Assembly: GCA_041476105.1 (NCBI GenBank)
Contig: JBGOSS010000009.1
Coordinates: forward strand, 2,798 to 66,797
Direction: 5' to 3'
Length of the DNA: 64,000 nucleotides
Origin: Gemmatimonadota bacterium
GTDB taxonomy: Bacteria; Gemmatimonadota; Gemmatimonadetes; Gemmatimonadales; JACORV01
The translations under genes were made by a program, and so were the position numbers. Positions 1-15,203 of the stretch are shown here, one piece after another. The notes under the pieces were generated by a model. That model did no database searches and was not told the DNA's origin. It saw nothing but the letters and a program-made list of their open reading frames with translations. Within the stretch, counting starts at the first letter, position 1; each line of letters begins with the position of its first letter.

Positions 1-2259
1 CCCGGGACGCCGGTGCACCTCTATCTGCCTGGTCCGCACCGCGGCGTCTGGAACCTCGCAGGCCTCCAAGGCGTGAAGGACGTGATCCTGTGTGAGGCGC
101 TGCTCGATGCGCTGACGTTCTGGGTGGCGGGCGTCCCCCACGTGACGGCGAGCTACGGGATCAACGGGTTCACCGATGAGCTGTTCGAGGCGGTCCGGAG
201 CAGCGGCGCCGAGCGGGTGCTGATCGCCTATGATCGCGACGAAGCCGGCGAGCGCGGGGCGGCCCAGGTGGCGCGCCGGCTCGCGGCCGAGGGACTCAGG
301 TGTTACCGGGTGGTGTTCCCGCAGGGGCTCGATGTGAACGCCCATGCGCTGGCCTATCCGCCGGCCGAGCGGAGTCTGGGGGAGCGGCTGCGGCAGGCGG
401 TGTTCCTGGACCAGGCCGTGGCGCCGGCGCCGCGCCTAACGAGCGAGCCCGCCGCTTCCTTCTTAGCCGCTCCGGTAGTCGCTGACGAGCCAGAAACTGG
501 AGCGAGCGGGGTCGTCGGCGTTGTCGGGGCGCCGCCGCCCCCGCCCGCCGTCACCGCGCAGGTCACGGGCGAAGACGTCACGCTCGCGCTGGGCGACCGG
601 CAGTATCGCATCCGCGGCCTCGGGAAGAACACGTCGCCTGATCTCTTGAAGGTCAACGTGCTGGTGCGCCGGGGCGAGCGGGTGCACGTCGACACGTTGG
701 ACCTCTACGCGGCGCGGCCGCGGGCCGTGTTCGCGGCGCAGGCGGCGGCGGAGCTGGGCGTGGGGCCCGAGGTGGTGAAGAAGGACCTGGGCCAGGTGGT
801 GCTGGAGTGCGAAGCGCTGCTCGCCAATCAACCGAATGCCAGTGCGTCGGAGTCGGCACCGCCGATGAGCGATGCCGAGCGGACGGCGGCGCTGGCGTTG
901 CTGCGCGATCCCGCGTTGCTCGATCGCATCCTGGCTGACTTCACGCGCGCCGGCGTAGTGGGGGAAGAGACCAACAAACTCGTCGGCTACCTGGCGGCGC
1001 TCTCGCGCAAGCTGGCCGAACCGTTGGCGGTGATCGTGCAGAGCGCGTCGGCCGCGGGCAAGACGGCCTTGATGGACGCGGTGCTGGCGCTGGTACCGCC
1101 GGAAGAGCGGATCCAGTACTCCGCCGTGACGGGGCAAGCGCTCTTTTACCTCACCGGCGCCGACCTGCGCCACAAGATCCTCGCGATCGTGGAGGAAGCC
1201 GGTGCCGAGCGGGCGAGCTACGCACTGAAGCTGCTCCAGAGCGAGGGCGAGTTGACGATCGCCTCGACGGGCAAGGATCCCAAGACCGGGAAGCTGATCA
1301 CCCACGCCTACCGGGTCGAAGGGCCGGTGATGGTGTTCCTCACGACGACGGCCGTTGAGGTGGACGAGGAACTGCTGAACCGGGCGCTGGTGCTGACCGT
1401 GGACGAGGACCGCGACCAGACCCGGGCGATCCACGCCGCACAGCGCCAGCGGCGCACGCTGGCGGGCCGGCTCGCCCAGGCGGAGCGGGAGGCGTTGCTG
1501 GCGCTGCACCGCAACGCGCAGCGGCTGATCGAGCCGGTGGCCGTGGTGAACCCCTATGCGCCGCAGCTCACGTTCAGCGACGTGCAGACCCGAGCGCGGC
1601 GCGATCATGAGAAGTATCTCACCCTCATCGACGTGATCGCGCTGTTGCACCAGCACCAGCGGCCGCGGCGGACCGCGGAACGTGACGGCGCCACGCTCTC
1701 CTACATCGAGGTCACGCCGCGCGACGTCGCCCTGGCGAACCGGCTGGCGGCCGCGGTGCTGGGGCACTCGCTGGACGAGCTGCCCCCGCAGACGCGGCGC
1801 TGCCTGACGCGGCTCGACCAGTGGCTCACGGCGCAGTGCGCCGACCACCAGCGGGAGCGCAGCGACGTGCGGCTGTTGGCGCGCGAGGTGCGCGAGATCA
1901 CGGGGCTCGGGCCCACTCAGGTGAAGCTGCACCTGCGCCGGCTGGTGGACCTCGAGTACGTGCTGGTGCACCGGGCACCACGGGGCCAGGGCGTGGCCTA
2001 CGAGCTGGTCTATGAGGGCCAGGGCGTGGACGGGACGCCGTTCCTCACCGGCCTGCTCGATGCTGAGCGGCTGGTGAGCTACGATCGGGAGCGGTCGGGG
2101 TCTGGGGCGCAGCGGTCGGGGCCCGGTCGGCCCCTGGTCGGTGGGGTGTCGGGGGGAGGCCGGAGCCGGTCCGCCGAGCACAGCGTCTCCAACGGCAAGC
2201 AGTTAGGCAGTCCGCGGCTCGTGGCGCTCGAAACCGCACGTCCTGCAGCCGCCTCGTGA
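1..2259 (+). CDS. DNA primase-helicase-like protein (Toprim + P-loop NTPase + probable C-terminal winged helix), 5'-truncated by the window edge
   Basis: Frame 1 is open from base 1 (PGTPVHLYLPGPHRGVWN). Toprim motifs ILCEALLDALT and AYDRDEAG; Walker A-like QSASAAGKT; Walker B-like LAIVEE; C-terminal wHTH-like segment (REVREITGLGPTQVKLHLRRLVDLEY). Confidence 0.8.
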   Translation, partial: PGTPVHLYLPGPHRGVWNLAGLQGVKDVILCEALLDALTFWVAGVPHVTASYGINGFTDELFEAVRSSGAERVLIAYDRDEAGERGAAQVARRLAAEGLRCYRVVFPQGLDVNAHALAYPPAERSLGERLRQAVFLDQAVAPAPRLTSEPAASFLAAPVVADEPETGASGVVGVVGAPPPPPAVTAQVTGEDVTLALGDRQYRIRGLGKNTSPDLLKVNVLVRRGERVHVDTLDLYAARPRAVFAAQAAAELGVGPEVVKKDLGQVVLECEALLANQPNASASESAPPMSDAERTAALALLRDPALLDRILADFTRAGVVGEETNKLVGYLAALSRKLAEPLAVIVQSASAAGKTALMDAVLALVPPEERIQYSAVTGQALFYLTGADLRHKILAIVEEAGAERASYALKLLQSEGELTIASTGKDPKTGKLITHAYRVEGPVMVFLTTTAVEVDEELLNRALVLTVDEDRDQTRAIHAAQRQRRTLAGRLAQAEREALLALHRNAQRLIEPVAVVNPYAPQLTFSDVQTRARRDHEKYLTLIDVIALLHQHQRPRRTAERDGATLSYIEVTPRDVALANRLAAAVLGHSLDELPPQTRRCLTRLDQWLTAQCADHQRERSDVRLLAREVREITGLGPTQVKLHLRRLVDLEYVLVHRAPRGQGVAYELVYEGQGVDGTPFLTGLLDAERLVSYDRERSGSGAQRSGPGRPLVGGVSGGGRSRSAEHSVSNGKQLGSPRLVALETARPAAAS
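449..473 (+). repeat. 25-bp direct repeat, copy 1 (copy 2 at 3225-3249)
   Basis: CCGCCGCTTCCTTCTTAGCCGCTCC versus CCGCCGCTTCTTCCTTAGCCGCTCC, 23/25 identical. Confidence 0.7.
2094..2163 (+). repeat. Helically phased GTCGG repeats (iteron-like)
   Basis: GTCGG starts at 2094, 2115, 2126, 2137 and 2148 (spacings 21, 11, 11, 11), with degenerate GCCGG at 2159. Confidence 0.6.
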
Positions 2260-3242
2260 GTCGCCGTCGTAGCGACGTGCCCGAGCCGCTGGGCTCGCTG
2301 GTGGCCGAGCACGTGCGCGGCCTCCTGGCCCGCCGGTTCGCCGCGAGCACCGTCCGGAGCCGCCGGCGCGACCTGGCGCACTTCGCGGCGTGGTGCGGCC
2401 TGCGCGGGCTCACGCATCCCGGCGAGCTCACGTTGCCCATCCTGGAGCGCTACCGCCAGGCGCTCTACGAGGCGCGCAAGGCGGATGGCCACCCGTTAGG
2501 CTGGGGCGCGCAGGCCCAGAAGCTGGTCGCGGTGAAGCAGTTCCTGCGCTGGGCCACGCGGATGAAGCACGTGCCCTTCGACGCCGGCGCCGCGCTCGAG
2601 CTGCCGCGGCGGCCGCAGCACCTGCCGCGCACCGTGCTCTCGATATCGGAAGTCGAGCAGGTCCTGGCCCAGCCCGATCTCGCGGGCCCGATGGGCGTGC
2701 GCGACCGCGCCATCCTCGAAACCCTCTACTCGACGGGCATGCGCCGGCTGGAACTCCTGCAGCTCACGCTGCCCGACGTCGACGCCGGCCGGGGCGTGGT
2801 GTTCATCCGGGAGGGCAAGGGCCGCAAGGACCGCGTGGTGCCGATCGGCGAGCGGGCCCTGGAGTGGATCGAGCGCTATCGCTGCGACGTGCGGCCGCGG
2901 CTGGTGGTCGAGCCTGATCCGGGGACGGTGTTCCTGACCAGCCGAGGGCGGCCCGTGCGCTCCAACCGGCTCACCGAGCTGGTGCACCACTATGTCGGCC
3001 AGGCGGGCGTGGGGAAGACCGGCAGCTGCCACGTGTTCCGGCACACCATGGCGACGCTGATGCTCGAGGGCGGGGCCGACGTGCGCTACATCCAGGCGAT
3101 GCTGGGCCACGCCCAGCTCTCCACCACCGAGCTCTACACCCGGGTCTCGATCACCGCGCTCAAGGCGGTGCACCAGCGGACCCACCCGGCGCACCGCACC
3201 CGCGCCGAGCGCCAGCGTGCCGAGCCGCCGCTTCTTCCTTAG
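2256..3242 (+). CDS. XerC/XerD-like tyrosine recombinase (integrase)
   Basis: Complete catalytic set: TGMRR (R), GKGRK (K), HVFRH (HxxR), LGH, TELYT (Y). GTGA overlap with the primase stop. Confidence 0.93.
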   Translation: MSRRRSDVPEPLGSLVAEHVRGLLARRFAASTVRSRRRDLAHFAAWCGLRGLTHPGELTLPILERYRQALYEARKADGHPLGWGAQAQKLVAVKQFLRWATRMKHVPFDAGAALELPRRPQHLPRTVLSISEVEQVLAQPDLAGPMGVRDRAILETLYSTGMRRLELLQLTLPDVDAGRGVVFIREGKGRKDRVVPIGERALEWIERYRCDVRPRLVVEPDPGTVFLTSRGRPVRSNRLTELVHHYVGQAGVGKTGSCHVFRHTMATLMLEGGADVRYIQAMLGHAQLSTTELYTRVSITALKAVHQRTHPAHRTRAERQRAEPPLLP

Positions 3243-3249
3243 CCGCTCC
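3225..3249 (+). repeat. 25-bp direct repeat, copy 2, spanning the recombinase stop codon
   Basis: 23/25 identical to 449-473. Confidence 0.7.
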
Positions 3250-3352
3250 TCTACCTCACGAGCGGTGGGCGGGGCCACGCGGCCCAGCGGCGTCCGGACG
3301 GCCGCCTCGCCTGACGGCTCGGATCGGGCCCGTGCCCTCGCGCTGCGCGCTC

Positions 3353-3382
3353 GGTGCGCATAACGGGCCCATTATGCGCACG
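3353..3382. promoter_or_regulatory. Palindrome of two dif XerC-type arms
   Basis: GGTGCGCATAA-cgggccca-TTATGCGCACG. Left arm is identical to the E. coli dif XerC arm (GGTGCGCATAA); right arm is an inverted 10/11 copy; 8-nt spacer. Confidence 0.75.
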
Positions 3383-3413
3383 GGCCCTCGGCCGCCCGGC
3401 CGCTCGCCCGGCG

Positions 3414-3442
3414 GGTTAACATAACCGGGGGTTATGTTAACT
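3414..3442. promoter_or_regulatory. Palindrome of two dif XerD-type arms
   Basis: GGTTAACATAA-ccggggg-TTATGTTAACT. Right arm matches the E. coli dif XerD arm (TTATGTTAAAT) at 10/11; left arm is an inverted 9/11 copy; 7-nt spacer. Confidence 0.75.
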
Positions 3443-3597
3443 GGGCCGCGGGCCCCGCCCCTTCGAGCACGGTGCGTGGCGCCACTCCCCCTCGGAAGTG
3501 CACGTCGGGCCTTCGGAGTTCATATTACGATCAAGAACTGAAGGAGCTCAGCAGCTAAAGAGAAAAAGCGCAGCGGGTTAGAGGCGACAGATCGTAG

Positions 3598-4200
3598 GCC
3601 ACGCGGCCGATCTGGTGCTATCTGACGCAAGATCCGATCGGGCTCGCCGGTGGCGTCAATCTGTACAGTTACGCTGGCGGAAATCCGGTCGCGTTCTCGG
3701 ATCCGTTCGGCTTGGCCTGCAAAGATCGCGACATGCTGTGTCGCTTCCGTCGCGCCGCAAACATCGTGGCTGGAGGCATAGCTGGGGGTCTTGGCGGCGG
3801 AGGCATGGGGACGCTCCTGGGTACGGCTACCTGTGGCCCCCCAGTTTGCACCACAGTCGGCTTTGTTGTTGGAACCGTGTATGGCGCAGTCGGCGGCGCG
3901 GTCGCAGCTGGACGGCAATTCGATGAGTACAATCAGTCCGAGTTCTCCGAGTCGGAGGGGTCCAGCAGCGGCTTTGACAATCGTAGGTTCTTTGACCGCC
4001 GCATAAACAAACAGAAGGTAGAGCTTGACGTCGAACAGCGCGCAACTGGAAGAGTCGTCCAGGTTCGCGTCAATGGAGAAGAGACCATCCTCAATAGCCG
4101 CCAAGACATTGGGAGGCTACCAAAGGGCATCAAGAACGACCAGGCATTCCGCGATGCGGCTGAAAAGGCATTCCGCTACCTCGAAAGGCTCCAGCAATGA
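3598..4200 (+). CDS. Orphan Rhs core fragment plus C-terminal toxin tip (no canonical start before the core motif)
   Basis: Frame upstream of the listed ORF 3712 reads [32 protein letters not shown], the Rhs core end with the PxxxxDPxGL cleavage motif; in-frame TAG at 3595-3597. Tip has a Gly-rich hydrophobic segment and a polar C-terminal domain. Confidence 0.85.
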
Positions 4201-4598
4201 GCGCTCACCATCAGATTGTGGAGATCACACTCGACTATGAGGGCAGGAACGCGAACCAGAGGGGAGGAGTCCCCGTGCGGCCGGCACTAGGCGAGGAGCT
4301 GATGATCGCGATTCGGGATCATCCGGAGTGGGAGCATGAGGCGGGGGAGCCAGTCTACCCCGATAACCCCAGTCAGCTGCAAATACACCTTGTGGGAACT
4401 GCACGGGCGCTCGAGGCTCTCGGAACCTACTTGATCGCGTTGGCGCGTCTTGACACGGAGAATCCTGAGCCGTCCCCCAGCTTGGATGATGTCCACCACG
4501 CTGACGGCGGGACAATCCGCCTTCTACCACGTCGAGTGCAGGAACTGCCCAAGGGCAAGAAACGTGGCTCCGACTATCGCAGCAGGTTTTGCCGGTAG
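4197..4598 (+). CDS. Putative cognate immunity protein (possibly Imm32-like)
   Basis: 133 aa; ATGA overlap with the toxin stop; [21 protein letters not shown] resembles the Imm32 pattern (by eye). Confidence 0.6.
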
Positions 4599-4881: not shown

Positions 4882-5430
4882 ATGGCCGCGAGGCCGATTG
4901 ACGTTGATGTCTTCCCCGATCCCGCCGATCCGCGCGCCTACTTTCACATCGGGCGGGACATCGTCGAGGCGTTGGATATCCAGTCTGCCGTCGAGGCGTT
5001 TGAGCGCCTGATCGCCACGCGCGACATGGCGGAAGCATACTGCGGCCACGTGAGCCTGATCTTCGATGGATACGAGGACGACCCTCTGGATCTCTGGTGC
5101 ATCCCGGCGGTGCGCGCCTTCCTCGCCGACCTGGACAAGGCGTTCCCCTGGTTCTTCTGGTTTCTCGATCCCAAGGGCAGCTCGCTGCTGCTGCTGGCGG
5201 CCTGCTGTTGCGGCACGACGACTTCTGTTGCCGCCAGTGGCAAGACCAGCGTCTCGTTTCCGTCGGTGGTCCTTGAAGCGTTCCTCTTCGCTCATTGCGA
5301 CGCGGCCGAGGTGATTCGCCGGCGCTTTGACTTCGCGGCGGAGGACCTCGGGGCTGTAGTGCGGCCGATCCTGGAGTACTTTCGGGTGCCCCGCGCTGGC
5401 TGGCTCCTGATCGGTCCGCAGCCGGACTGA
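4882..5430 (+). CDS. DUF1817/CRR6-like protein
   Basis: DDPLDLWCIPAVRAFLADLDKAFPWFFWFLD resembles the CRR6/DUF1817 core (DPRELxEIPEVRxWxxxLDxxYPW). Confidence 0.55.
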   Translation: MAARPIDVDVFPDPADPRAYFHIGRDIVEALDIQSAVEAFERLIATRDMAEAYCGHVSLIFDGYEDDPLDLWCIPAVRAFLADLDKAFPWFFWFLDPKGSSLLLLAACCCGTTTSVAASGKTSVSFPSVVLEAFLFAHCDAAEVIRRRFDFAAEDLGAVVRPILEYFRVPRAGWLLIGPQPD

Positions 5431-5485: not shown

Positions 5486-6490
5486 TTAGTCGCCACCACC
5501 CGGTTTGGGATTCCGGTCGGCCCGCAGACAGAGCATCCGCTTTCGCTGCCGCAGCGAGATCCCGTGATCTAGCAACCGGCGATAGAGCGTCGTCCGCCCG
5601 ATGCCGAGATGCTTGGCGATACGCCCCGCATGCCACGCCGATGTTTCGCAGACCGCAAGCAGCGCGGCGCGTTCCTCGACCGCGGCCGACTGGAGGGGCG
5701 GCGTCCCGCTGACCGGACCAATCGACAAGGCGTCCTGAAGGGTCTCGAGGGGAATCTCACGGTCGATTGCCAGCCAGGACGCGCGCTCCATCACGTGGCG
5801 CAGCTCGCGAGCGTTCCCCGGCCAGGTGTACTGGAGGAGCATGTCGGTTGCCGAAGGTGGGAGAAGCTTGCCGCACGTCGCCGCGAACGCCCTGGCGAGC
5901 GGGACAATGTCCTCCCTCCGCTCCGTAAGCGCCGGCAGTTCGATCACGACGCCGGCGATGCGCTGAAGGAGATCGAGCCGGAACGTCCCAGCCGAAACCC
6001 GATCGCCCAGCCGGTCCTGGGTGGCCGCGATCAGACGGAAGTCTACCCGCCGACTGATCGTCTCGCCCACCCGCCGTACGCACATTGTGTCGAGCACACG
6101 CAGGAACTTGATCTGCGCCTCGAGCGGCATGCTGCAAATCTCGTCCAGGAAGACCGTCCCGGCCTCGGCGGCTTCGATCAGGCCGGCTCTCGAGTCCACG
6201 GCACCGCTGAAGGCACCACGGCAGCGGCCAAAGAGCTCCGACTCGATCAGCTCCTTGGGCAGCGCGCCGCAGTTGATGTCGATGAGCGGTCCCGGACGGC
6301 GGCCCCAGACGTGGATGTGCTGCGCCAACAGCTCCTTGCCCGAGCCCGTCGGACCCACGAGGAGGATGGGGACCCTCGACGGAGCGAACCTGCGCCCAAG
6401 CTCGACGGCGCGACGCATCGCCGGTGAATCGCCGATGATGGGCGCGAGCTCCGAATCGGGCGCACCGACCTTCCGGAGCGCCTCGCTCAT
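5486..6490 (-). CDS. Sigma-54-dependent enhancer-binding protein lacking an N-terminal sensor domain
   Basis: GPTGSGKE, ESELFG, GAFSGA, FLDEI, WPGNAREL and Fis-type HTH (LGIGRTTLYRRL); overlaps the gspD stop. Confidence 0.9.
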   Translation of the reverse strand: MSEALRKVGAPDSELAPIIGDSPAMRRAVELGRRFAPSRVPILLVGPTGSGKELLAQHIHVWGRRPGPLIDINCGALPKELIESELFGRCRGAFSGAVDSRAGLIEAAEAGTVFLDEICSMPLEAQIKFLRVLDTMCVRRVGETISRRVDFRLIAATQDRLGDRVSAGTFRLDLLQRIAGVVIELPALTERREDIVPLARAFAATCGKLLPPSATDMLLQYTWPGNARELRHVMERASWLAIDREIPLETLQDALSIGPVSGTPPLQSAAVEERAALLAVCETSAWHAGRIAKHLGIGRTTLYRRLLDHGISLRQRKRMLCLRADRNPKPGGGD

Positions 6491-7959
6491 GGCCGGCCCT
6501 CCCCCGGCAGGCGCGGCGCAGTCACGCTGTCCGCATCGGCGTCCGTCGCCAGGATGCGAGGTGTCAGAAAGAGGTAGAACTCGGTTGACTCTTCCCGGCG
6601 ACTCACGGCGCCGAACAGCCCGCCGAGAATGGGAATGCCGGAGAGAACGGGTACGCCTTGTCGGGAGCGGTCCGACTGTTGATCGCGCAGGCCACCGAGC
6701 ACCACCGTCTGACCGTTGCGCAGCAGCACGCGCGTGCTGGCCTCCCGGGTGGAGATGATGGGCGCTCCGAACTGCGTCTCGGCCGTCGCCGCGCTGACCT
6801 CCTGCTGGATCTGGAGCGACACGTAGCCATCGTGGTTGATCGTGGGCTTGACGATGAGCCGTGTGCCAACATCACGGTACTGCACGACCTGGTCGCGCGT
6901 CGGTGTGTCGGTCGGCAGCGACCGACTCACCTGCACGAAGGGTCGTTGTGAGCCGACCAGCAGCCTGGCTTCGGTATTGTTGGACGCCAGAAGCACCGGC
7001 CGCGACAGGATGGAGAGGTTGCCCCGGCTTTCCGCCGCACGGATTGTGGCGTACAAGTTCGGCCCACCTACGTTGAGCACGCGGATTACCAGGTCGCCGA
7101 GGCCGCCGCCCACGACCTCGCCGTCCGCCGACGCCCCGTGCCCGATGGACTGGGTTGGTACGAACAGGTCGGCGCCAAGGGAGAAGGTGTGGTCGCGGCG
7201 CGCCTCGACGATCAGGACCTCGATCAGGACCTGGAGCGGTCGGATGTCCAGCTCGTCCACCGCCCGCTGGATCACGTCGTAGTCGCGCTGGCCGGCGCGA
7301 ATGAGCAGCGAGTTCGTGATCTCGTCGGGAACGATGGTGAGAGGCCCCGCGAGGTTGGCCGCCGAGCCGGCGGTCGTCGGCGAGCGTTCCGTGGGTGTTC
7401 CGGCGGGCGGGACGTTCATGCGACGCAGTTCATCCGACAGCGTCCCTGCCGAAACGCCGGCCGAGCCCGAGAACTGTCCGCCTCCACCGAACAACTGGTT
7501 GACGGTCGCCGCCACGTCGGCGGCGCGGGCGTGCCGAAGGCGGATCACGAAGAGCCGCGGCTCGCTCTGCACCTGTGCCTGCGTTCGCGCCGCGTCGGGG
7601 AGTGCCGCCGGCGTCGCAAGACTCGTCGCGGGGTGTTCGCGGACGCGCCAGTACGCCGGTTCGTCCACCAGGTCGAGCTGCTGCGACTCAATCAGGCCAC
7701 GCAACAGATCCAGAACGGCGGCGCGCGGAACCGGCACCGGAGTCTGGAACGATACCCGGGTGCCGGGGACCCCGGTCATGAGCATCGGCTTGGAGAGATA
7801 GCGCGCGAGCGCCTGTACCACCCCGCGCAGGTCGGCATCCACAAACTCGACCGTCACGCTGTCGCGGAGCAGCCGCACCGGCTCCGGCAGCTGCGCGCCC
7901 AGGGGCTGCGCACCGCACAGGACGAGACCGAGGAGGAGGGAGGACCACCGAGCCGTCAT
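6487..7959 (-). CDS. gspD: Type II secretion secretin (short form)
   Basis: Signal peptide; N-domain IRLRHARAADVAATV and TNSLLIRA; LDIRPLQVLIEVLIVE; C-domain VPVLSGIPILGGLF and FLTPRI. Start at ATG 7959 (ATGA overlap). Confidence 0.9.
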   Translation of the reverse strand: MTARWSSLLLGLVLCGAQPLGAQLPEPVRLLRDSVTVEFVDADLRGVVQALARYLSKPMLMTGVPGTRVSFQTPVPVPRAAVLDLLRGLIESQQLDLVDEPAYWRVREHPATSLATPAALPDAARTQAQVQSEPRLFVIRLRHARAADVAATVNQLFGGGGQFSGSAGVSAGTLSDELRRMNVPPAGTPTERSPTTAGSAANLAGPLTIVPDEITNSLLIRAGQRDYDVIQRAVDELDIRPLQVLIEVLIVEARRDHTFSLGADLFVPTQSIGHGASADGEVVGGGLGDLVIRVLNVGGPNLYATIRAAESRGNLSILSRPVLLASNNTEARLLVGSQRPFVQVSRSLPTDTPTRDQVVQYRDVGTRLIVKPTINHDGYVSLQIQQEVSAATAETQFGAPIISTREASTRVLLRNGQTVVLGGLRDQQSDRSRQGVPVLSGIPILGGLFGAVSRREESTEFYLFLTPRILATDADADSVTAPRLPGEGRP

Positions 7960-8432
7960 TGCGGTCTCCGAAGCGTGAGGGTCCATGCGGTGTCGAGCCC
8001 GACCACGCGCACCTGGGCCTGTGAGATCGCCACCAGTCGAAGCCCGGCGACGACGTCGCCGACCCTCAGGGAGCGGCTGCCTTCGATCCCCGGCAGGCCC
8101 TCGAGCAGCGCGCGCGAGGTGTCGCCCAGGACGAGCCCTCGAAGCATGAGTTGCGGCCTGGGAGGTGGTGCGAGGGTGGCCGCTCCCTCGCCGAGCGCGG
8201 GTTGGTAGCGGACAGCGGCGGGTCGCCGCTCGAATCGGAACAGATCCCGCGACACGATCCCGAGGGCAAGCGAATCCACCGGGTAGGGCGGGTCACTGAC
8301 TGCGGCTTCCTGCCTTACATCACGGCGTTCCGGAGCAGCGGAATCGATCGGCGACGTGCCGGCGCGCACGCTCGCGCCCACGCCACCCGCGATCAGGAGC
8401 CAAAGGGCCATCTCAAACCACGCCTGCGTCAT
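7956..8432 (-). CDS. GspC-like T2SS component (N-terminal TM, no PDZ)
   Basis: Lies between gspM-like and gspD; TM helix; LRGLVLG...ALLEG...LRVGDVVAGLRLVAI resembles the GspC/PilP HR fold. Confidence 0.55.
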   Translation of the reverse strand: MTQAWFEMALWLLIAGGVGASVRAGTSPIDSAAPERRDVRQEAAVSDPPYPVDSLALGIVSRDLFRFERRPAAVRYQPALGEGAATLAPPPRPQLMLRGLVLGDTSRALLEGLPGIEGSRSLRVGDVVAGLRLVAISQAQVRVVGLDTAWTLTLRRPQ

Positions 8433-8992
8433 GGCGTCTCGCTCCCGCCGACGAACCAGCCGCCGATGGTGACCTCAAGTCGGAGGGTCTCGGTGCCGCC
8501 GGGTCCGCTCGGCTCCAGGGCTGTCATCGCGATCGAGGGAATCGTGAGTACCGGCGTGCGGCCTTCCATGTCCCGAAGGAACTGCGTGATGCCTGCGATG
8601 TCGCCCTCCAGATCGGCGCGAACTCTGACCGGTCGAATCGGCCCGGTTCCGGAGTCGGCAAGCGATTCGGCTCGCCGTACGCGCAGAGCCGCCCGGCTCG
8701 CCACCCCGTTGATCAGGGAGATGAGGGTGGCTGCCGCCTCGGATTGCGTGTGCCCTCCGACCAGCTTCGGCGCAAGCGCGACAAACTCCGTCAGCGCGAG
8801 ACGGAGCGAATCACGCGTCGCCGAGGCTCCCGCGAGGGCCGCGCTGGCTCCGCGGGCCGTCTCCACACGCGTCCGAGTACGCTCCTGGGCCTGCTGCATC
8901 CGAGCACGAAGCGATGGAACCGATCCAGCGAGCACCGTGCCCAACAGCACGACGCCGCCCGCGATCAGCGCGCGGCGATCACGTTCCATCAT
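8429..8992 (-). CDS. gspM: GspM/PilO-like inner membrane platform protein
   Basis: ERDRRALIAGG before a single TM, coiled coil, and ferredoxin-like C-terminus (LEGDIAGITQFLRDME). Confidence 0.65.
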   Translation of the reverse strand: MMERDRRALIAGGVVLLGTVLAGSVPSLRARMQQAQERTRTRVETARGASAALAGASATRDSLRLALTEFVALAPKLVGGHTQSEAAATLISLINGVASRAALRVRRAESLADSGTGPIRPVRVRADLEGDIAGITQFLRDMEGRTPVLTIPSIAMTALEPSGPGGTETLRLEVTIGGWFVGGSETP

Positions 8993-10179
8993 TGCCGGCT
9001 TGCCAGTCGTGCGACGAGGTGGAATTGGTCGCGTTCAACCACGCGAGTGCCGACACTGATCCTTTGGCGGGTTGGTGGGGACTCGAGGTGGACATTGGAC
9101 AATCCCGGCAGGCGCTCGAGGGCTACCACGGCCTGGTCCGCGACTGGTGCGTAACCGCTCAGACGTAGCGTGGAATCCGGGTCGATGCGCAGCGAGGCCA
9201 GCGTGATGGAATCGTTGAGGCTGCGTGTCAGCTCGGCGAGCAGCGAGAGATGGCGGGAGCGCCGGTGCTCGGCCGCCGCCATTGTCCGGAGCGCGCCAGC
9301 GGCCGCGTCGAGATCGCGCCGCACCACCATGATGCCATTCAACCGAGGCGCCAGTGTCGCCAGCTCGGCGGCGGCGGTGCGGTCCGCGGCGCTGTACCGC
9401 AGCGCCGTGATGACGAACGCGCCGGCCCATGTAACCGCAGCGATCGCCGCGAGCCGGAGCAGGCGCGTTGTGCGCCCCCGCTCCGCCCGCTGCCGGGACA
9501 TGACAGGCAGCAGGTCCAGATGGGGTCGCGCCCGCGTAAGGGAGAACGCGGCCGCGTAGAGCGCTGACGTCTCGTGCAACGCTGCGAGCGACGGATGCCA
9601 GGCAGTTTCGCCGGGTTCGTTACCGGTGTGCTGCACGCGCCACGCCCGCCCGCGCGTGAGTTCGACGTGCAAGACACCGCTCGAGGTCGGCAGAACGACA
9701 GAGCCCTCACGGTACGATGTCGCGAATGGCAATGCCTCGAGGGCCGGACCGATACACTCCACGTCGAGTCCGGCCTGCTCGCATCCCGCCACGACTCGCT
9801 TCACGACATCCTCGGATGCGGCGGCCGCGACCAGGACGCGATGCCCTGGCGCAATGCTGACGATTCGCGCGTCGGTGACCAGCGGGCCGTGCCCGTTTCG
9901 GAACAGGCGGTCGCACTCGAGCGCGACATGCCGGCGTGCCTGGGAAGGCCGAAATGGAGGAGCGGGATCCAGAGCCCGAAGTCTGGCGACGTCGGGTCCC
10001 AGGCCGATGCGAGCACGGCGCAGGGGCTCGGGTGCGTCGCTCGCCAAACGCGCGAAGACCTCGACCAGGTCATCTGGACTGCTGTAGGACACGCTCGCGG
10101 CCCAGTGCACCCGGCGCCGATCCGCCAGCAGCGCGTGGACCGCGGTCGTCGTCACACTGATGCCGAGCCGCCGTCTCAC
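8989..10179 (-). CDS. gspL: GspL-like (PilM-like N-terminus, TM, PilN-like C-terminus)
   Basis: LGISV N-terminus, DLLP before the TM, PilN-like LAELTRSL...LRLSGYA; operon position. Confidence 0.65.
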   Translation of the reverse strand: MRRRLGISVTTTAVHALLADRRRVHWAASVSYSSPDDLVEVFARLASDAPEPLRRARIGLGPDVARLRALDPAPPFRPSQARRHVALECDRLFRNGHGPLVTDARIVSIAPGHRVLVAAAASEDVVKRVVAGCEQAGLDVECIGPALEALPFATSYREGSVVLPTSSGVLHVELTRGRAWRVQHTGNEPGETAWHPSLAALHETSALYAAAFSLTRARPHLDLLPVMSRQRAERGRTTRLLRLAAIAAVTWAGAFVITALRYSAADRTAAAELATLAPRLNGIMVVRRDLDAAAGALRTMAAAEHRRSRHLSLLAELTRSLNDSITLASLRIDPDSTLRLSGYAPVADQAVVALERLPGLSNVHLESPPTRQRISVGTRVVERDQFHLVARLASRQ

Positions 10180-10973
10180 GGAAGCCGCCGCCGTATGATT
10201 GCGAGGCGTCCCGGTTGTTCGGTCACGAGCAGGTCGAGCGTTTCGGTGAGACCGTGCGGGGGCTTGCCAGCCGTCCCCGTCGCGGTCAGTCGGAGCACCG
10301 ATGGCTGAAAGTCGAGCGTGCCAGAGAGGTGGGCGTACTCGCGCGCCAGGCTCTCCCGACCGGCCCGCGACAGGAGCCCGCCAAGCTCATCGAGCGAGCC
10401 AAGCGGGCGACGGGCTTCACGGCGCGCCGCGAGAACCGACACTGCCTCACGGCTGAGGCCGGACAATGCCAGCAGCACGGCAGGCGGAGCGTTGACGCTG
10501 ACGGCACCGCGGCCCTCGACTGTGAGGAGTGCGACCAGCTCCGCGGGCAGGTGAATCTCTTCCTCAAGCTGGGCGATGCTCTCGATGGCCTGGCCGGCGC
10601 GAAACCGAACGATGCGATGGGCCCACATCGTGGCGGAACCCGGTCCTACACCGGTCAGCGCGAAGGCTCTTTCTATCGTCGCGCTGTCGGACTGATTGAC
10701 GTTGAGAGCCGCGAAGGGATTCTCCAACCGCCACCGGCAGCTGAGACCGTCCCCGAGCGCCTCCGAGCCGTAGTCTTCAGTCGAGCCTTCCGCTCGCCGG
10801 CCGCGTGCGATCTCGGCGCACGCCTCGGCTGCCCATCGTGCGCGCGCGAGACCTATCCGGTTGCGCGAGGCCCGGTCGCCCATTCGGAGTATGCCCATCC
10901 ACGCCGCGAGCGCACCGGTGAGCGCCGCGATTGTCCAGAGGACTGCCATCAAGGCGAAGCCGTGCTTCGTCAT
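10176..10973 (-). CDS. gspK: Minor pseudopilin GspK
   Basis: Start MTKHG|FALMAVLW (no Glu5, typical of GspK); LNVN motif; ATGA overlap with gspJ. Confidence 0.75.
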   Translation of the reverse strand: MTKHGFALMAVLWTIAALTGALAAWMGILRMGDRASRNRIGLARARWAAEACAEIARGRRAEGSTEDYGSEALGDGLSCRWRLENPFAALNVNQSDSATIERAFALTGVGPGSATMWAHRIVRFRAGQAIESIAQLEEEIHLPAELVALLTVEGRGAVSVNAPPAVLLALSGLSREAVSVLAARREARRPLGSLDELGGLLSRAGRESLAREYAHLSGTLDFQPSVLRLTATGTAGKPPHGLTETLDLLVTEQPGRLAIIRRRLP

Positions 10974-11494
10974 TCGCTCCCCACGAGGAGCAGCAGCGTG
11001 TCTGGCTTCCCCAGGCGCCAGAGCCTGAAACGGATGCCGAGTGGCAGCGAAGTGGGCGACAGGTATCCACGAACCCATGACTCGTTGGCGCCGGCGTGCG
11101 GGAGGTAGTCCAGCGCCAGGCTGTCGACACCGACAGCGACAACCAGCGTATCGAACTGCGATACGACCGCCAGCCCGGGGTCGATTGCAACGACGGTGTA
11201 GGACCGCAGGATCGGCCAGCCGCGGGACCGGCTGCTCCACGCGCTGAAGAGGATCCGATCCCGCTCGCCGTGAAAGGGAATGGCCCCAGGGCTCGCGACG
11301 TCGATGGACTCGACCAGCTTTCCCAGCAACCGGAGGCCATTCGCGTCGCGGTCGAGCCGCTCGCGTCGCTCGGTGAGCCGGCGAGCGTCCTCCGTCACGT
11401 CGCCAAACAGCCGGGCCGCTGTGAGCACCAGGACCGAGCCGATGGTGAGTCCTACGACGAGCTCCAGCAGCGTAAAGCCTCGACTATCGCGCAT
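10970..11494 (-). CDS. gspJ: Minor pseudopilin GspJ-like
   Basis: Prepilin motif RG|FTLLELVVGL. Confidence 0.7.
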   Translation of the reverse strand: MRDSRGFTLLELVVGLTIGSVLVLTAARLFGDVTEDARRLTERRERLDRDANGLRLLGKLVESIDVASPGAIPFHGERDRILFSAWSSRSRGWPILRSYTVVAIDPGLAVVSQFDTLVVAVGVDSLALDYLPHAGANESWVRGYLSPTSLPLGIRFRLWRLGKPDTLLLLVGSE

Positions 11495-11849
11495 CGAGGT
11501 CTTCACGATACACGACAGTCACAAGATCGTCGCGCTGTGGGTTGGCGGCGCGCCGGAGCGCGATGCGGAACAGGGTGCGCGTCGGACGCTGGATACCGAC
11601 CAGGTACGGGCCGACGACCGACACACCCAGCCGCAGCTCCAGGTCGGATCGCGACAGCAGCACGTGGGCCGTAAGGAGGCGATCCTCATCCGCCAGCTCG
11701 GCCTCGCGCTGTTGCGCTTCGGCGAGCGATCGGCTCTCGGCATCCACCAGCCTGACGATGCCAAGACCGGCGACGGCGAGGATGGTCGTCGCGGCCATCA
11801 CCTCCAGCAGCACCACGCCGCGCTCAGCGCTTCGCACGGACGGTCCCAC
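11484..11849 (-). CDS. gspI: Minor pseudopilin GspI-like (start may be GTG 11837)
   Basis: RG|VVLLEVMAA, ~120 aa. Confidence 0.65.
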   Translation of the reverse strand: MGPSVRSAERGVVLLEVMAATTILAVAGLGIVRLVDAESRSLAEAQQREAELADEDRLLTAHVLLSRSDLELRLGVSVVGPYLVGIQRPTRTLFRIALRRAANPQRDDLVTVVYREDLDAR

Positions 11850-12123
11850 TCAACGGGTCCACGACGATGGTGACGCCGTCCGCCGTGAGACGCCCGCCGT
11901 TCGATGACCCGTCCGGAAGGAAACGGATGACGACCGAGCCCGAGTGCCACACCGTTGGTTTGCCGAATCGAATCGCCGACTCGCGGGCATCGAGCACCGC
12001 TCGCAGCGCGGCCGCCGAAGGCGAGGCCATGCTCTGACGCCAGGCCAACCCGCTCAGTCCCGCGATGAGGCCGATGATCGCCAGCGAGACGATCAGCTCG
12101 AGGAGGGTCAAGCCCCTACTCAC
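11824..12123 (-). CDS. gspH: Short minor pseudopilin GspH-like
   Basis: RG|LTLLELIVSLAIIG; IRFLPDGSSNGG typical of GspH/FimT. Confidence 0.7.
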   Translation of the reverse strand: MSRGLTLLELIVSLAIIGLIAGLSGLAWRQSMASPSAAALRAVLDARESAIRFGKPTVWHSGSVVIRFLPDGSSNGGRLTADGVTIVVDPLSGTVRAKR

Positions 12124-13304
12124 GGACCCCCCGGTCTCACGCTGTAGAGCGCCTGGAGCAGGCCAGCCGCGACGAGCGCCACCATCGCGGCAAAGCCGAC
12201 GATGAGGGCGGGTTCGAGGAGGCCGATCAGCGTCCCGATGCGTTGCTCGGCGTTCTGTGCCTCGATCGCGGCCGCCCGGCCGAGGAGTTCCGGCAAGCGG
12301 CCCGCGCCGTCGCCGATTGCGGCCATCTGAAGCGCGAATGGGGTGAAGGCGCGCTCCGCTTCCAGGGCCGCACTAAGCGAGGCGCCCTCCGCCACCCGTT
12401 CGGTGGCGCGTCCGAGGCGCTCCGCGACCAGAGTGTCACCGACGCTCTCCTGTGCAATGCGAATCGCGCGCAGCGCAGGAGTACCCGTGCCGAGCAGGGC
12501 CCCCAGGGCGCGGGCCGCCCGCGCCGTCGCGCGGGCGTGCAGGATCGCTCCGATGATCGGGTACGCGTGCAGAAGGCTCGATGCCCGGGTGCGATGGCTC
12601 CTGCTCCACCGAATGACGGTGGCGGCTCCCAGAACGAAGAGGGTCGCGAGCACCAACCAGTGCGACCGGAGAGTCATCGAGGCGCCGAGCAGCAAGCGCG
12701 TCAGCGGTGGGAGGACCGCATCCACGTCCGCCAGGAGCGCCGCGAAGCGTGGCACCACGAACAGCAGGATTCCGAGAAGTGAAGAACCGCCAACAGTCAG
12801 GAGGATCGCCGGGTAGGCCAGGGCCGCGCGCATCCGGGCGGCGCTCTCGGCGCTCCGCTCAAGCTCGTCGGCCGCCGCGGCGAGTCCGGAGGCGACTCCG
12901 AGCCCGTTCTCCGAAGCGTGCACCAGCCCCACGGCTATGGGGGAAAAGAAGAACGGCTCGGCACTCAGTGCGGCCCCGAGCGACGCTCCTTCGCGGACCC
13001 CGGCCTCGACGCGGGCCAGCGACTCGGCCAGCTGTCCCGACACCGCTCGGCGCGTGGCCTTGAGGGCGAAAGCCAGCGGCACCCCGGCCTCCATCAGCGA
13101 GGCGAGGCTGCGGAACGCAGTCGCCTGCGAGCGGGCGTCAGGACGCCGCCGCCAGCGCTCTAGCGGCGCCGGTTCGACCGCGACAGCGAGCAGCCCGCGG
13201 CGCTCCAGAACGGCGAGGGCTTCGGGTCTGGAGGCGACCTCGAGCCGTCCGCGCACGACGCCACCATCCAACGGGCGCACCGCCTCGAAACGGAATCCGC
13301 TCAC
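12120..13304 (-). CDS. gspF: T2SS inner membrane protein F
   Basis: LASLMEAGVPL, ALAYPAILL, LPPLTRLL, LLEPALIV. Confidence 0.9.
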   Translation of the reverse strand: MSGFRFEAVRPLDGGVVRGRLEVASRPEALAVLERRGLLAVAVEPAPLERWRRRPDARSQATAFRSLASLMEAGVPLAFALKATRRAVSGQLAESLARVEAGVREGASLGAALSAEPFFFSPIAVGLVHASENGLGVASGLAAAADELERSAESAARMRAALAYPAILLTVGGSSLLGILLFVVPRFAALLADVDAVLPPLTRLLLGASMTLRSHWLVLATLFVLGAATVIRWSRSHRTRASSLLHAYPIIGAILHARATARAARALGALLGTGTPALRAIRIAQESVGDTLVAERLGRATERVAEGASLSAALEAERAFTPFALQMAAIGDGAGRLPELLGRAAAIEAQNAEQRIGTLIGLLEPALIVGFAAMVALVAAGLLQALYSVRPGGP

Positions 13305-13732
13305 TGGCTGATGTCCGCGTCTTCACCGACGCCGCCCGGACGTCCGTCGCGCCCGTGCGTCAACAGGTCGTATCCCGCGGGGTTGACCACCCCCGGCCTG
13401 GCGAAGACGTAGGCGTGGCCCCACGGATCAAGCGGGATCGGGCGTCGCAGGTAAGGGCCGCGCCAGTTGCGTGGCGCCGGATCGCCGGCGGGTTGGGCCC
13501 GCAGCGCGTCGAGGCCCTGTGCGGTCGACGGGTAGTAGTCGTTGTCGAGCCGGTATTGATCCAGCGCGAGCGCGAACAACTCCATCTGTGCCTTGGCGGC
13601 CGATACCTTCGCGTCCCCGACATTGCGGAAGACCATTGGCGCAACCAGCCCCGCGAGCATCGCGATCACCACGATCACCACCATGATCTCGATGAGTGTG
13701 AACCCGCCGCGGCCGTCAGTCCTGGGTGACAC
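13301..13732 (-). CDS. gspG: Major pseudopilin GspG
   Basis: GG|FTLIEIMVVIVVI; ALDQYRLDN, YPSTAQGL, WRGPYL, DPWG. GTG start at 13732 preceded by GAGGAAG. Confidence 0.95.
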   Translation of the reverse strand: MSPRTDGRGGFTLIEIMVVIVVIAMLAGLVAPMVFRNVGDAKVSAAKAQMELFALALDQYRLDNDYYPSTAQGLDALRAQPAGDPAPRNWRGPYLRRPIPLDPWGHAYVFARPGVVNPAGYDLLTHGRDGRPGGVGEDADISQ

Positions 13733-15203
13733 GGAGCACTTCCTCGATCGTGGTGATGCCGGCCTGCACCTTGCGCCAGCCGTCGTCACGGAGCGTGACC
13801 ATGCCTTCCCGGCGCGCGATTTCGCGCAGACCGGTGAGGTCGTCGCCGCGCGCCGCCGCCAGCTTCACCCCATCGGTGACCCTGAGGAGCTCGAACAAGC
13901 CGGTGCGGCCGCGGTAACCGGTGTTACGGCACTCGGGGCAGCCCCGACCGCGCTCGAGCGAGACCCGGCCGACGGGCCGGTGTGCCAGAAGCGCGACCGC
14001 CTCGGCATCGGGTCGGTAGCGTTCCCGGCAATGGGCGCACACCCGGCGGACCAGGCGTTGCGCGAGCACGCCCTCGAGCGCGGCGACGACCATGTAGGAC
14101 TGGACCCCCAGATTCGCGAGACGCGTCAGTGCCGATACGGCATCGTTGGTATGAAGCGTCGAAAAGACCAGGTGCCCGGTCATGGCCGCCTGGACGGCGA
14201 TCTGCGCGGTCTCGGTGTCCCGCATTTCGCCCACCATGATGACGTCGGGGTCCTGACGGAGCAGGGAGCGCAACGCGGAGCTGAAGGTCATGCCGGCCCG
14301 GGCATTCACTTGCACCTGGGTCACGCCGTCGAAGTGGTATTCGACTGGATCCTCGACCGTGATGATCTTCTCGGCGCTCGCGCGCCGCAGGCCGAGTGCG
14401 GCGTACAGGGTGGTGGTCTTGCCGCTTCCGGTCGGGCCAGTCGCCAGAATGATGCCGTGTGGCCGCTCCGCGAGCCGGCGAACGGCGGCCAGATCCTCCG
14501 GCGCGAGACCCAGCTCATCGAGACCGACGGGCCGGCCGCCACGATCCAGCAACCGTACGGCCACCGATTCGCCGTACAGCGTGGGTACGGTGGACACCCG
14601 CAGGTCGAGCTCCCGCTCCTCGAGCCGAAGGCGGATCCGGCCGTCCTGGGCGATGCGGCGCTCGGCGATGTCCAGGCCGGCGAGGAGCTTGACCCGGGAC
14701 ACGACCGCCGCTTGGAGCCCCTTGGGCGGACAGGGGACCTCGCTGAGGACGCCGTCCAGGCGGAAGCGTACCCGCAGGCCCTCGCGCGCTGACTCGAGAT
14801 GGATGTCGCTGGCTTGGGACTGGTAGGCTTCGCGGATCAGCAGGTTGACGAAGCGGATGACCGGTGGCTGGCTGGCAAGATCCCGTGCGTCCGCGTACGG
14901 AGCATCGCCCTCTGTGGCTGTCTGGACCGCGTCATTGAGGTCGCGAACCAGCTCGACCACCGACTCCGCTGCGCTGAATGCGCGGCGAATGCCGTCCTCG
15001 AGCTCGATTGCGGTGACTGGCAGTAGATCGAGAGGGATCCCGAACGAAATCTCGAGGTCGTCCAGCACCTCGATGGCGGGTTCGCCCGAGACGGCGACCC
15101 TGAGCCGTTCGTTCGCGATCTCGAGCGGGAGGATCCCGTTGTACTGGAGGTAGGCAGCCTCGAAGGCATCCGGCAGAGGCAGTTTCGATTGAATCTCGGC
15201 CAC
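13716..15203 (-). CDS. gspE: T2SS ATPase GspE
   Basis: ASDIHLE, GPTGSGKTTTLY, TVEDPVE, LRQDPDVIMVGEMRD, TGHLVFSTLHTN, CAHC/CPEC zinc site. Confidence 0.95.
   Translation of the reverse strand: MAEIQSKLPLPDAFEAAYLQYNGILPLEIANERLRVAVSGEPAIEVLDDLEISFGIPLDLLPVTAIELEDGIRRAFSAAESVVELVRDLNDAVQTATEGDAPYADARDLASQPPVIRFVNLLIREAYQSQASDIHLESAREGLRVRFRLDGVLSEVPCPPKGLQAAVVSRVKLLAGLDIAERRIAQDGRIRLRLEERELDLRVSTVPTLYGESVAVRLLDRGGRPVGLDELGLAPEDLAAVRRLAERPHGIILATGPTGSGKTTTLYAALGLRRASAEKIITVEDPVEYHFDGVTQVQVNARAGMTFSSALRSLLRQDPDVIMVGEMRDTETAQIAVQAAMTGHLVFSTLHTNDAVSALTRLANLGVQSYMVVAALEGVLAQRLVRRVCAHCRERYRPDAEAVALLAHRPVGRVSLERGRGCPECRNTGYRGRTGLFELLRVTDGVKLAAARGDDLTGLREIARREGMVTLRDDGWRKVQAGITTIEEVLRVTQD

Follow-up and report, generated by a model that had tools for sequence, protein, structure and literature searches.

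An element with its own Xer-type recombinase that probably exchanges the toxin tip of an rhs gene

We consider it probable that the left end of the window analysed here, a 64,000-nt stretch of Gemmatimonadota contig JBGOSS010000009.1 (C9; window positions are C9 positions minus 2797, C9:2798-66797), belongs to an integrative element lodged in the core codons of an rhs gene, and that this element enters as a circle through its own Xer-type recombinase, gives the gene a new tip and pushes the resident tip and its immunity gene behind the recombinase. The draft genome measures 4.03 Mb and is 84% complete. A preliminary description of this DNA had proposed an integrative element that reprograms the rhs toxin tip, and that proposal is supported by a repeat at the left boundary, by the enrichment of Rhs fragments behind homologues and by two pairs of empty and filled sites in Escherichia coli.

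Repeats and genes of the element

A 23-bp direct repeat at the codons for the Rhs DPIG motif brackets a 5,699-bp unit that holds a tip, an immunity gene, a helix-turn-helix (HTH) gene, a primase-helicase and a recombinase, and the whole locus reads rhs, tip 1, immunity gene 1, HTH, primase, recombinase, core repeat, tip 2 and immunity gene 2. The 2.8 kb to the left of the window contain the 3' end of the host rhs gene with a complete core and tip 1 (C9 ~150-1247), which differs from the tip in the window, its partner and likely immunity gene (C9 1256-1546), a divergent HTH regulator gene (C9 1584-1949, minus strand) and the start of the primase gene; the left copy of the repeat, attachment site attL, lies at the DPIG codons (C9 720-742). 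The second copy, attR, occupies 3622..3644 (+) of the window, and core similarity extends to 3710, the two cores being 85% identical over 89 bp and fully identical over the first 23 bp; beyond the repeats they differ at synonymous sites. Leftward extension of the contig, which the preliminary description had advised, thus revealed an rhs 3' end and a duplicated core segment at the left boundary, and it also moved the limits of the element, which had been placed at 1-4598 and instead lie ~2,080 nt before the first window position and at 3621 (window part 1..3621, +).

Searches of the five element proteins against PHROGs returned primase, integrase, regulator and rhs-like matches and left the product of immunity gene 1 unassigned, and the unit showed no recognisable packaging or transfer gene. 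The 5' part of the host rhs gene was not located in the same genome, being cut off by a repeat common to four contig ends. This repeat end (C9:1-139), which interrupts the host rhs gene in C9, recurs with different flanks at the ends of C27, C57 and C72 and is likely an insertion sequence (IS). A long rhs gene with a tip, a partner and a frameshifted HTH gene ~50% like that of the element lies at another contig end of this genome (C69:13640-19571) and may represent the beginning of a second unit that has decayed.

The window opens on the 3' part of the primase-helicase gene (1..2259, +), for which domain search and motifs point to a zinc-finger/Toprim protein with a P-loop helicase-like domain: the Toprim_2 match has an E value of 1.8e-15, the P-loop match is weak and Walker A/B-like motifs stand at residues 347 and 393. 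The full zinc-finger-Toprim-helicase gene starts ~650 nt left of the window (C9 2146), and its stop is overlapped (GTGA) by the start of a tyrosine recombinase gene (2256..3242, +) with a Phage_integrase domain and a complete, intact set of catalytic R-K-H-R-H-Y motifs. Family profiles place the recombinase in the NF002331/PRK01287 subfamily at 409.7 bits, above the curated cut-off of 371, and under the housekeeping cut-offs of TIGR02224 (XerC, 217.8 versus 335 bits) and TIGR02225 (XerD, 225.4 versus 330 bits); identity as an integron integrase was rejected, the IntI profile giving 108 versus 265 bits in a split match. Further Xer-like genes elsewhere in the genome are 34-37% identical to it. 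The domain matches, family cut-offs and GTGA overlap bear out the replication gene and coupled tyrosine recombinase that had been described, and from its domain content alone the primase-helicase may replicate the element. The motif TTAGCCGC or its near complement occurs at 463-470, 3239-3246 and 3551-3558 and also in L001, L003, L018, L021 and L053 (L numbers denote loci outside the window); it has 19 copies across the genome, often lies close to the right end of the element and is a possible arm-type or origin site.

The right end of the element is non-coding (3480..3621, +). Remnants ~79% like it are present in two same-genus genomes (L166, G005:C304:2819-2919; L167, G004:C11:3395-3468), on contigs with no primase, recombinase or Rhs core. 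From 3622 there follows a start-less Rhs core end (TIGR03696, 38.1 bits versus a cut-off of 32.5) that leads into tip 2 (3622..4200, +), and the end of this gene is coupled by ATGA to a gene for a 133-residue protein (4197..4598, +) that resembles Imm32 immunity proteins (Atlas similarity 0.93, 219/256 features, with Imm32 on 29% of that cluster) and likely confers immunity to tip 2. Across tip 2 and the partner gene, GC drops from ~72% to 57-62%. Tip 2 gave no Pfam match, an Atlas match below 0.9 and no longer homologue, and a fold search with a single-sequence model (pLDDT 72) returned no match (best Z 5.5); the tip having no family, its label as a toxin derives from its position and its immunity-like partner. 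The TIGR03696 match, ATGA coupling and Imm32 likeness agree with the start-less core end, tip and coupled small gene of the preliminary description, an arrangement that would make this a putative Rhs orphan toxin-immunity module. The further proposal that this tip is the delivered cargo probably does not hold: in the E. coli pairs described below the tip behind the recombinase is the old one, and by analogy 3622-4598 is likely the displaced resident pair, with the cargo tip left of the window.

Empty and filled sites and the reach of the family

At the ansP-pptA locus of E. coli, strain JNE151685 has no element and its rhs gene is fused to one tip, whereas strain E2 holds 16,714 bp (two units) inserted between 15-bp repeats that start at the D codon of DPIG, the flanks of the two strains being 99.3% and 99.7% identical. 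The rhs gene of E2 bears a new tip, and the tip of JNE151685 is now an orphan behind the last recombinase. In three of the 60 E. coli records listed, the first base of the repeat is also the first base of the match. The cdiA gene provides the other pair: it is element-free in strain 1303, and in C11 one unit of 7,782 bp splits it at the codons for VENN (13 bp shared), such that cdiA of C11 has a new tip and the old tip and array stand behind the unit (10,973 bp at 99.7% identity to strain 1303). These pairs identify the tip upstream of the HTH gene as cargo and the tip after the recombinase as displaced. The pairing of EC77 with E2 as a clean two-unit insertion was rejected, EC77 being chimeric with the array of the rhsC locus and rich in frameshifts.

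E. coli, Lonsdalea and Buttiauxella share the codon at which element ends meet the core, and the joining base is identical for three distinct left contexts. Core variants switch right after the junction and, beginning with base 13-16, go with the tip; direct repeats of 12-23 bp stand at both element ends, and at enterobacterial junctions a 6-bp stretch is flanked by an imperfect inverted repeat made up of the element end and its target. The cores of tyrosine recombinase sites likewise form imperfect inverted repeats, and repeats of 13-15 bp are below the usual needs of RecA. The short fixed junction, the switch of core variants behind it and the imperfect inverted repeat together argue for site-specific integration by the encoded recombinase. 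Folding of the junction as a hairpin was rejected as a general guide, being weak (z between +0.6 and -3.5 when both strands of 10 junctions with an element end were folded).

The module that JNE120442 has fused to rhs is found again in a metagenome contig, where it follows an element end (96.6% over a stretch of 4,784 bp that begins at the DPIG codon). The expressed tip block of G035, a relative at the level of the order, is likewise met again after an element end (99.8%, 2,359 bp). Units that are almost identical can differ in their tips, and the element end is kept by orphan cassettes that have no primase. A circular Lonsdalea record of 11,289 bp has both junctions of the element-end type; exact terminal repeats were present in none of 18 metagenome contigs. 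A 13,148-bp circular record of Leptospira noguchii (L169) has a broken primase and a recombinase, and tblastn found no Rhs core in it.

One scan gave 42 homologous loci from many phyla, from which we kept recombinases coupled to a primase and followed by 2 kb or more of sequence, one per genome, in 17 genomes; left out were three loci at contig ends, six distant integrases, which served as controls, and the rest, which were duplicates or had no visible primase. A hidden Markov model (HMM) of the core was built from 28 seeds (homologue loci and the window's own genome) and used at a threshold of 12, reversed sequence reaching at most 1.0; it matched eight times in the whole of the window's genome. 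With this model a same-strand Rhs core was detected within 4 kb downstream in 10/17 genomes and in 0/6 controls, an enrichment that the preliminary description had anticipated for homologous primase-recombinase pairs, and other toxin motifs raise the count to 12/17 (a core end seen by eye in L014, a PT-VENN domain in L029). Its view that the element targets rhs stands in so far as insertion into rhs is seen, but the target is not rhs only, cdiA being entered as well. On comparative genomic evidence, insertion of this widespread family changes the toxin tip of rhs or cdiA. The family is patchy, with carriers in 13/401 and 7/400 genomes of two proteobacterial samples (each with the seed genome), 7/301 genomes of the window's own phylum (seed genome included) and 60/5,426 E. 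coli genomes plus 35 plasmid records, and no relative was found in viral contigs. Tandem arrays of units are common, and Photorhabdus has several copies of the recombinase family.

Around these loci we recorded a number of variants. Family recombinases that have no primase next to them are nonetheless neighbours of Rhs cores, in some cases with the two on different strands (L007, L013, L035-L037, L120-L122, L131), and the orphan Rhs cassettes L082, L083, L088 and L092, which have an E. coli-type element end and no primase nearby, are candidate non-autonomous forms. Several orphan cdiA modules remote from any recombinase (L059, L171) start exactly at VENN, and their few upstream bases are the same as the element end. 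Junctions of other lineages follow LAQSQ codons or lie near a GYTG core start (L001:10210, L003:3200 and 12140, L004:7613; L021, L024). Prophage genes directly upstream of the recombinase in L115 (E. coli GTEN_24), at the expected place of the primase, suggest that a prophage inserted in one unit.

In the putative mechanism, the mobile form would be a circle comprising core end, tip, immunity gene, HTH gene, primase and recombinase, which the primase-helicase would replicate and the recombinase would join to conserved toxin codons. Integration would fuse the tip of the element to the host Rhs protein and displace the resident tip and immunity gene behind the recombinase, and excision would restore the old tip. 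Repeated insertion would build tandem arrays, the cell retaining old immunity genes. The conserved motif that serves as target differs between lineages (Rhs DPIG, CdiA VENN and others). More tentatively, and with slightly less than even confidence, we suggest that such self-replicating elements form a dedicated, cross-phylum engine of polymorphic-toxin diversification, in which the Xer-type recombinase of each lineage is retuned to one such motif, the weapon is swapped on integration and restored on excision, primase-less cassettes are mobilised in trans, and many orphan modules that start at a motif find their explanation.

Palindromes, competing explanations and neighbouring genes

Sequence inspection revealed two palindromes with dif-like arms, assigned to neither strand, at 3354..3381 (8-nt spacer) and 3415..3441 (7-nt spacer); their arms resemble Neisseria dif as given in the accessible part of PMC10210955. 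Loosely similar arm pairs number only nine in the 4.03-Mb genome, two being these palindromes, and the region folds as a single strand (z -4.3), while an Rfam scan of 3150-3750 gave no match. Under an arm pattern defined after examples had been seen, dif-like arms occur in 12/34 units against 0.47 expected and 0/34 primase-region controls. The preliminary description was right that palindromes resembling recombination sites are present, but they were rejected as the integration site, the junction lying 180-270 nt further right inside core codons. Our best guess is that the paired dif-like sites are accessory and resolve multimers or tandem copies. Movement of the unit at these sites by host XerC/XerD, as in Xer-exploiting elements, with the element's recombinase as an accessory, would accommodate the excess of dif-like arms, the inverted pairs with odd spacers and the single-strand fold; it is nonetheless highly improbable given that 22/34 units have no match, that the window arms pair like with like and that the empty and filled junctions fall at toxin codons, not at dif-like sites.

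Several observations weigh against tip exchange by the element's own recombinase. A single empty and filled pair leaves the direction, insertion or loss, unfixed, and no empty site for the window's element was found among six same-genus genomes. No clean inverted repeat is seen at the window junction, where the two strands fold with z -2.1 and -0.4, and one G035 pair differs at core +9. Five of the 17 genomes have no known toxin motif downstream; three of these share another fixed junction followed by variable open reading frames (ORFs), and two are unexplained. In the window's copy, the primase reading frame is broken by a +1 shift behind the zinc finger (near C9 2500, ~300 nt before the first window position); the frameshift is likely real given the 141-bp end overlaps of the assembly, typical of short reads, and this copy is likely replication-defective. 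Eight runs compared with the E. coli unit showed no back-joint or skip at the repeats, six being contig sets, in which rare forms are dropped, and two being raw-read runs that lack the unit, one covering only its last bin and the other no part of it. A Shigella circle of 8,758 bp was rejected as a free element; it closes inside the primase and may be a collapsed repeat.

Other contrary points bear on the role of homology. Under the model of Jackson et al. (2009), host RecA would exchange tips via the core-homology arm of the element and the recombinase would merely resolve circle multimers at dif-like sites, a reading that draws on the 85% identity of the window cores over 89 bp, the long core homology (~190-350 bp) in L110 and L008, which is enough for RecA, a long arm in L012 and mosaic right ends. 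R12 lacks one MP1 unit with a break 706-770 bp upstream of the DPIG junction, such that loss of a unit need not use the att site; this one event falls in a 65-bp tract that holds a dif-like site and makes up ~2% of the identical sequence. Over 15.7 kb the insertion in EC77 is a chimera with a different rhs locus, which fits homologous recombination or misassembly. Set against RecA exchange are the identity of just 13 bp at the CdiA insertion and 15 bp at the Rhs insertion, the association of core variants with the tip from base 13-16 and the same joining base for three different left contexts, and we judge it unlikely as the general route. The R12 crossover, the EC77 chimera and the long-homology lineages do indicate that homologous recombination also reshapes arrays. 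Less likely again is that the element is selfish, with toxin motifs as safe and abundant att sites, tip exchange as a by-product and the tip-immunity pair repairing the gene end or addicting the host. The type II toxin-antitoxin or SymE genes of many units, the many arrays with decayed units and IS insertions and the frameshift in the window's copy are in its favour, whereas different tips on near-identical units and primase-less orphan cassettes that keep the element end fit ongoing tip traffic. This last account is compatible with recombinase-driven tip exchange, sharing its mechanism and differing in the selective reading.

Directly after the displaced immunity gene lies a 182-residue ORF (4882-5430, +) with a Crr6-like match (Pfam E 4.5e-6), which may be a further orphan immunity-type gene. 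The stretch 5486-15200 (minus strand) encodes a sigma-54 activator and then a type II secretion-like cluster (secretin, pseudopilins and ATPase, named from ORF inspection).

Relation to known systems

P4-like satellites, phage-inducible chromosomal islands (PICIs) and integrative elements that restore a 3' end have a regulator divergent from a primase-helicase, a tyrosine recombinase and a short att repeat in a gene. The window's element shares the layout of regulator, primase-helicase, recombinase and short repeat with P4-like satellites and PICIs; it differs from them in that the restored 3' end encodes a different toxin and in that no packaging or transfer gene was recognised.

Since 2009 it has been asked how Rhs and CdiA proteins come by new tips while the former ones accumulate downstream, and the episomal circle proposed for this lacked a known vehicle or enzyme. 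In the accessible part of Jackson et al. (2009; PMC2935791), a circle with core end and tip enters rhs by one crossover and the old tip is shunted downstream; that model predicts a circle without an integrase, whereas the window's element has its own recombinase. We regard the element as a candidate for the predicted vehicle; a candidate enzyme and a 12-15-bp site are named along with it, and E. coli strains with and without an insertion form matched pairs. Our results further suggest that 'xerC' annotations made by NF002331 mark such elements and not chromosome-segregation genes, and they indicate a family of recombinases whose targets lie within coding motifs and differ between lineages.

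A description of the element family was not found in full-text literature searches, to which most subscription papers and supplements were out of reach, and the comparisons that follow draw on the accessible portions of each source. Ruhe et al. (2016; PMC4927057) reported arrays of displaced tip-immunity pairs with intervening integrase genes and suggested site-specific recombination, but for their orphan cdiA-CT/cdiI modules those portions define no element, att site or primase. For the orphan rhs-CT/rhsI modules of Poole et al. (2011; PMC3150448), an integrase, primase, recombinase or Xer is never mentioned there. XerC/D occur beside polyimmunity loci (Zhang et al. 2012; PMC3482391), and work on bee gut bacteria (PMC5727410) noted Rhs-associated integrases and left the role of the integrase open. 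Martinkus et al. (2026; via bioRxiv 10.64898/2026.07.13.738213) reportedly describe Xer-dependent systems beside Rhs poly-immunity arrays in Xenorhabdus and Photorhabdus, which possibly use the same recombinase family and may overlap with the element. The rAID systems of Bacteroidales (Azhieh et al. 2025; bioRxiv 10.1101/2025.05.03.651265) likewise have conserved intergenic motifs and a tyrosine recombinase next to genes for interbacterial immunity, but are defined there as a recombinase with an array of orphan immunity genes, the stated definition including neither primase nor Rhs insertion. Identity with rAID was rejected, the window's element having core, tip and immunity gene downstream and a primase upstream in place of a toxin-free immunity array; in contrast to rAID, it would enter the toxin gene itself and change the weapon.

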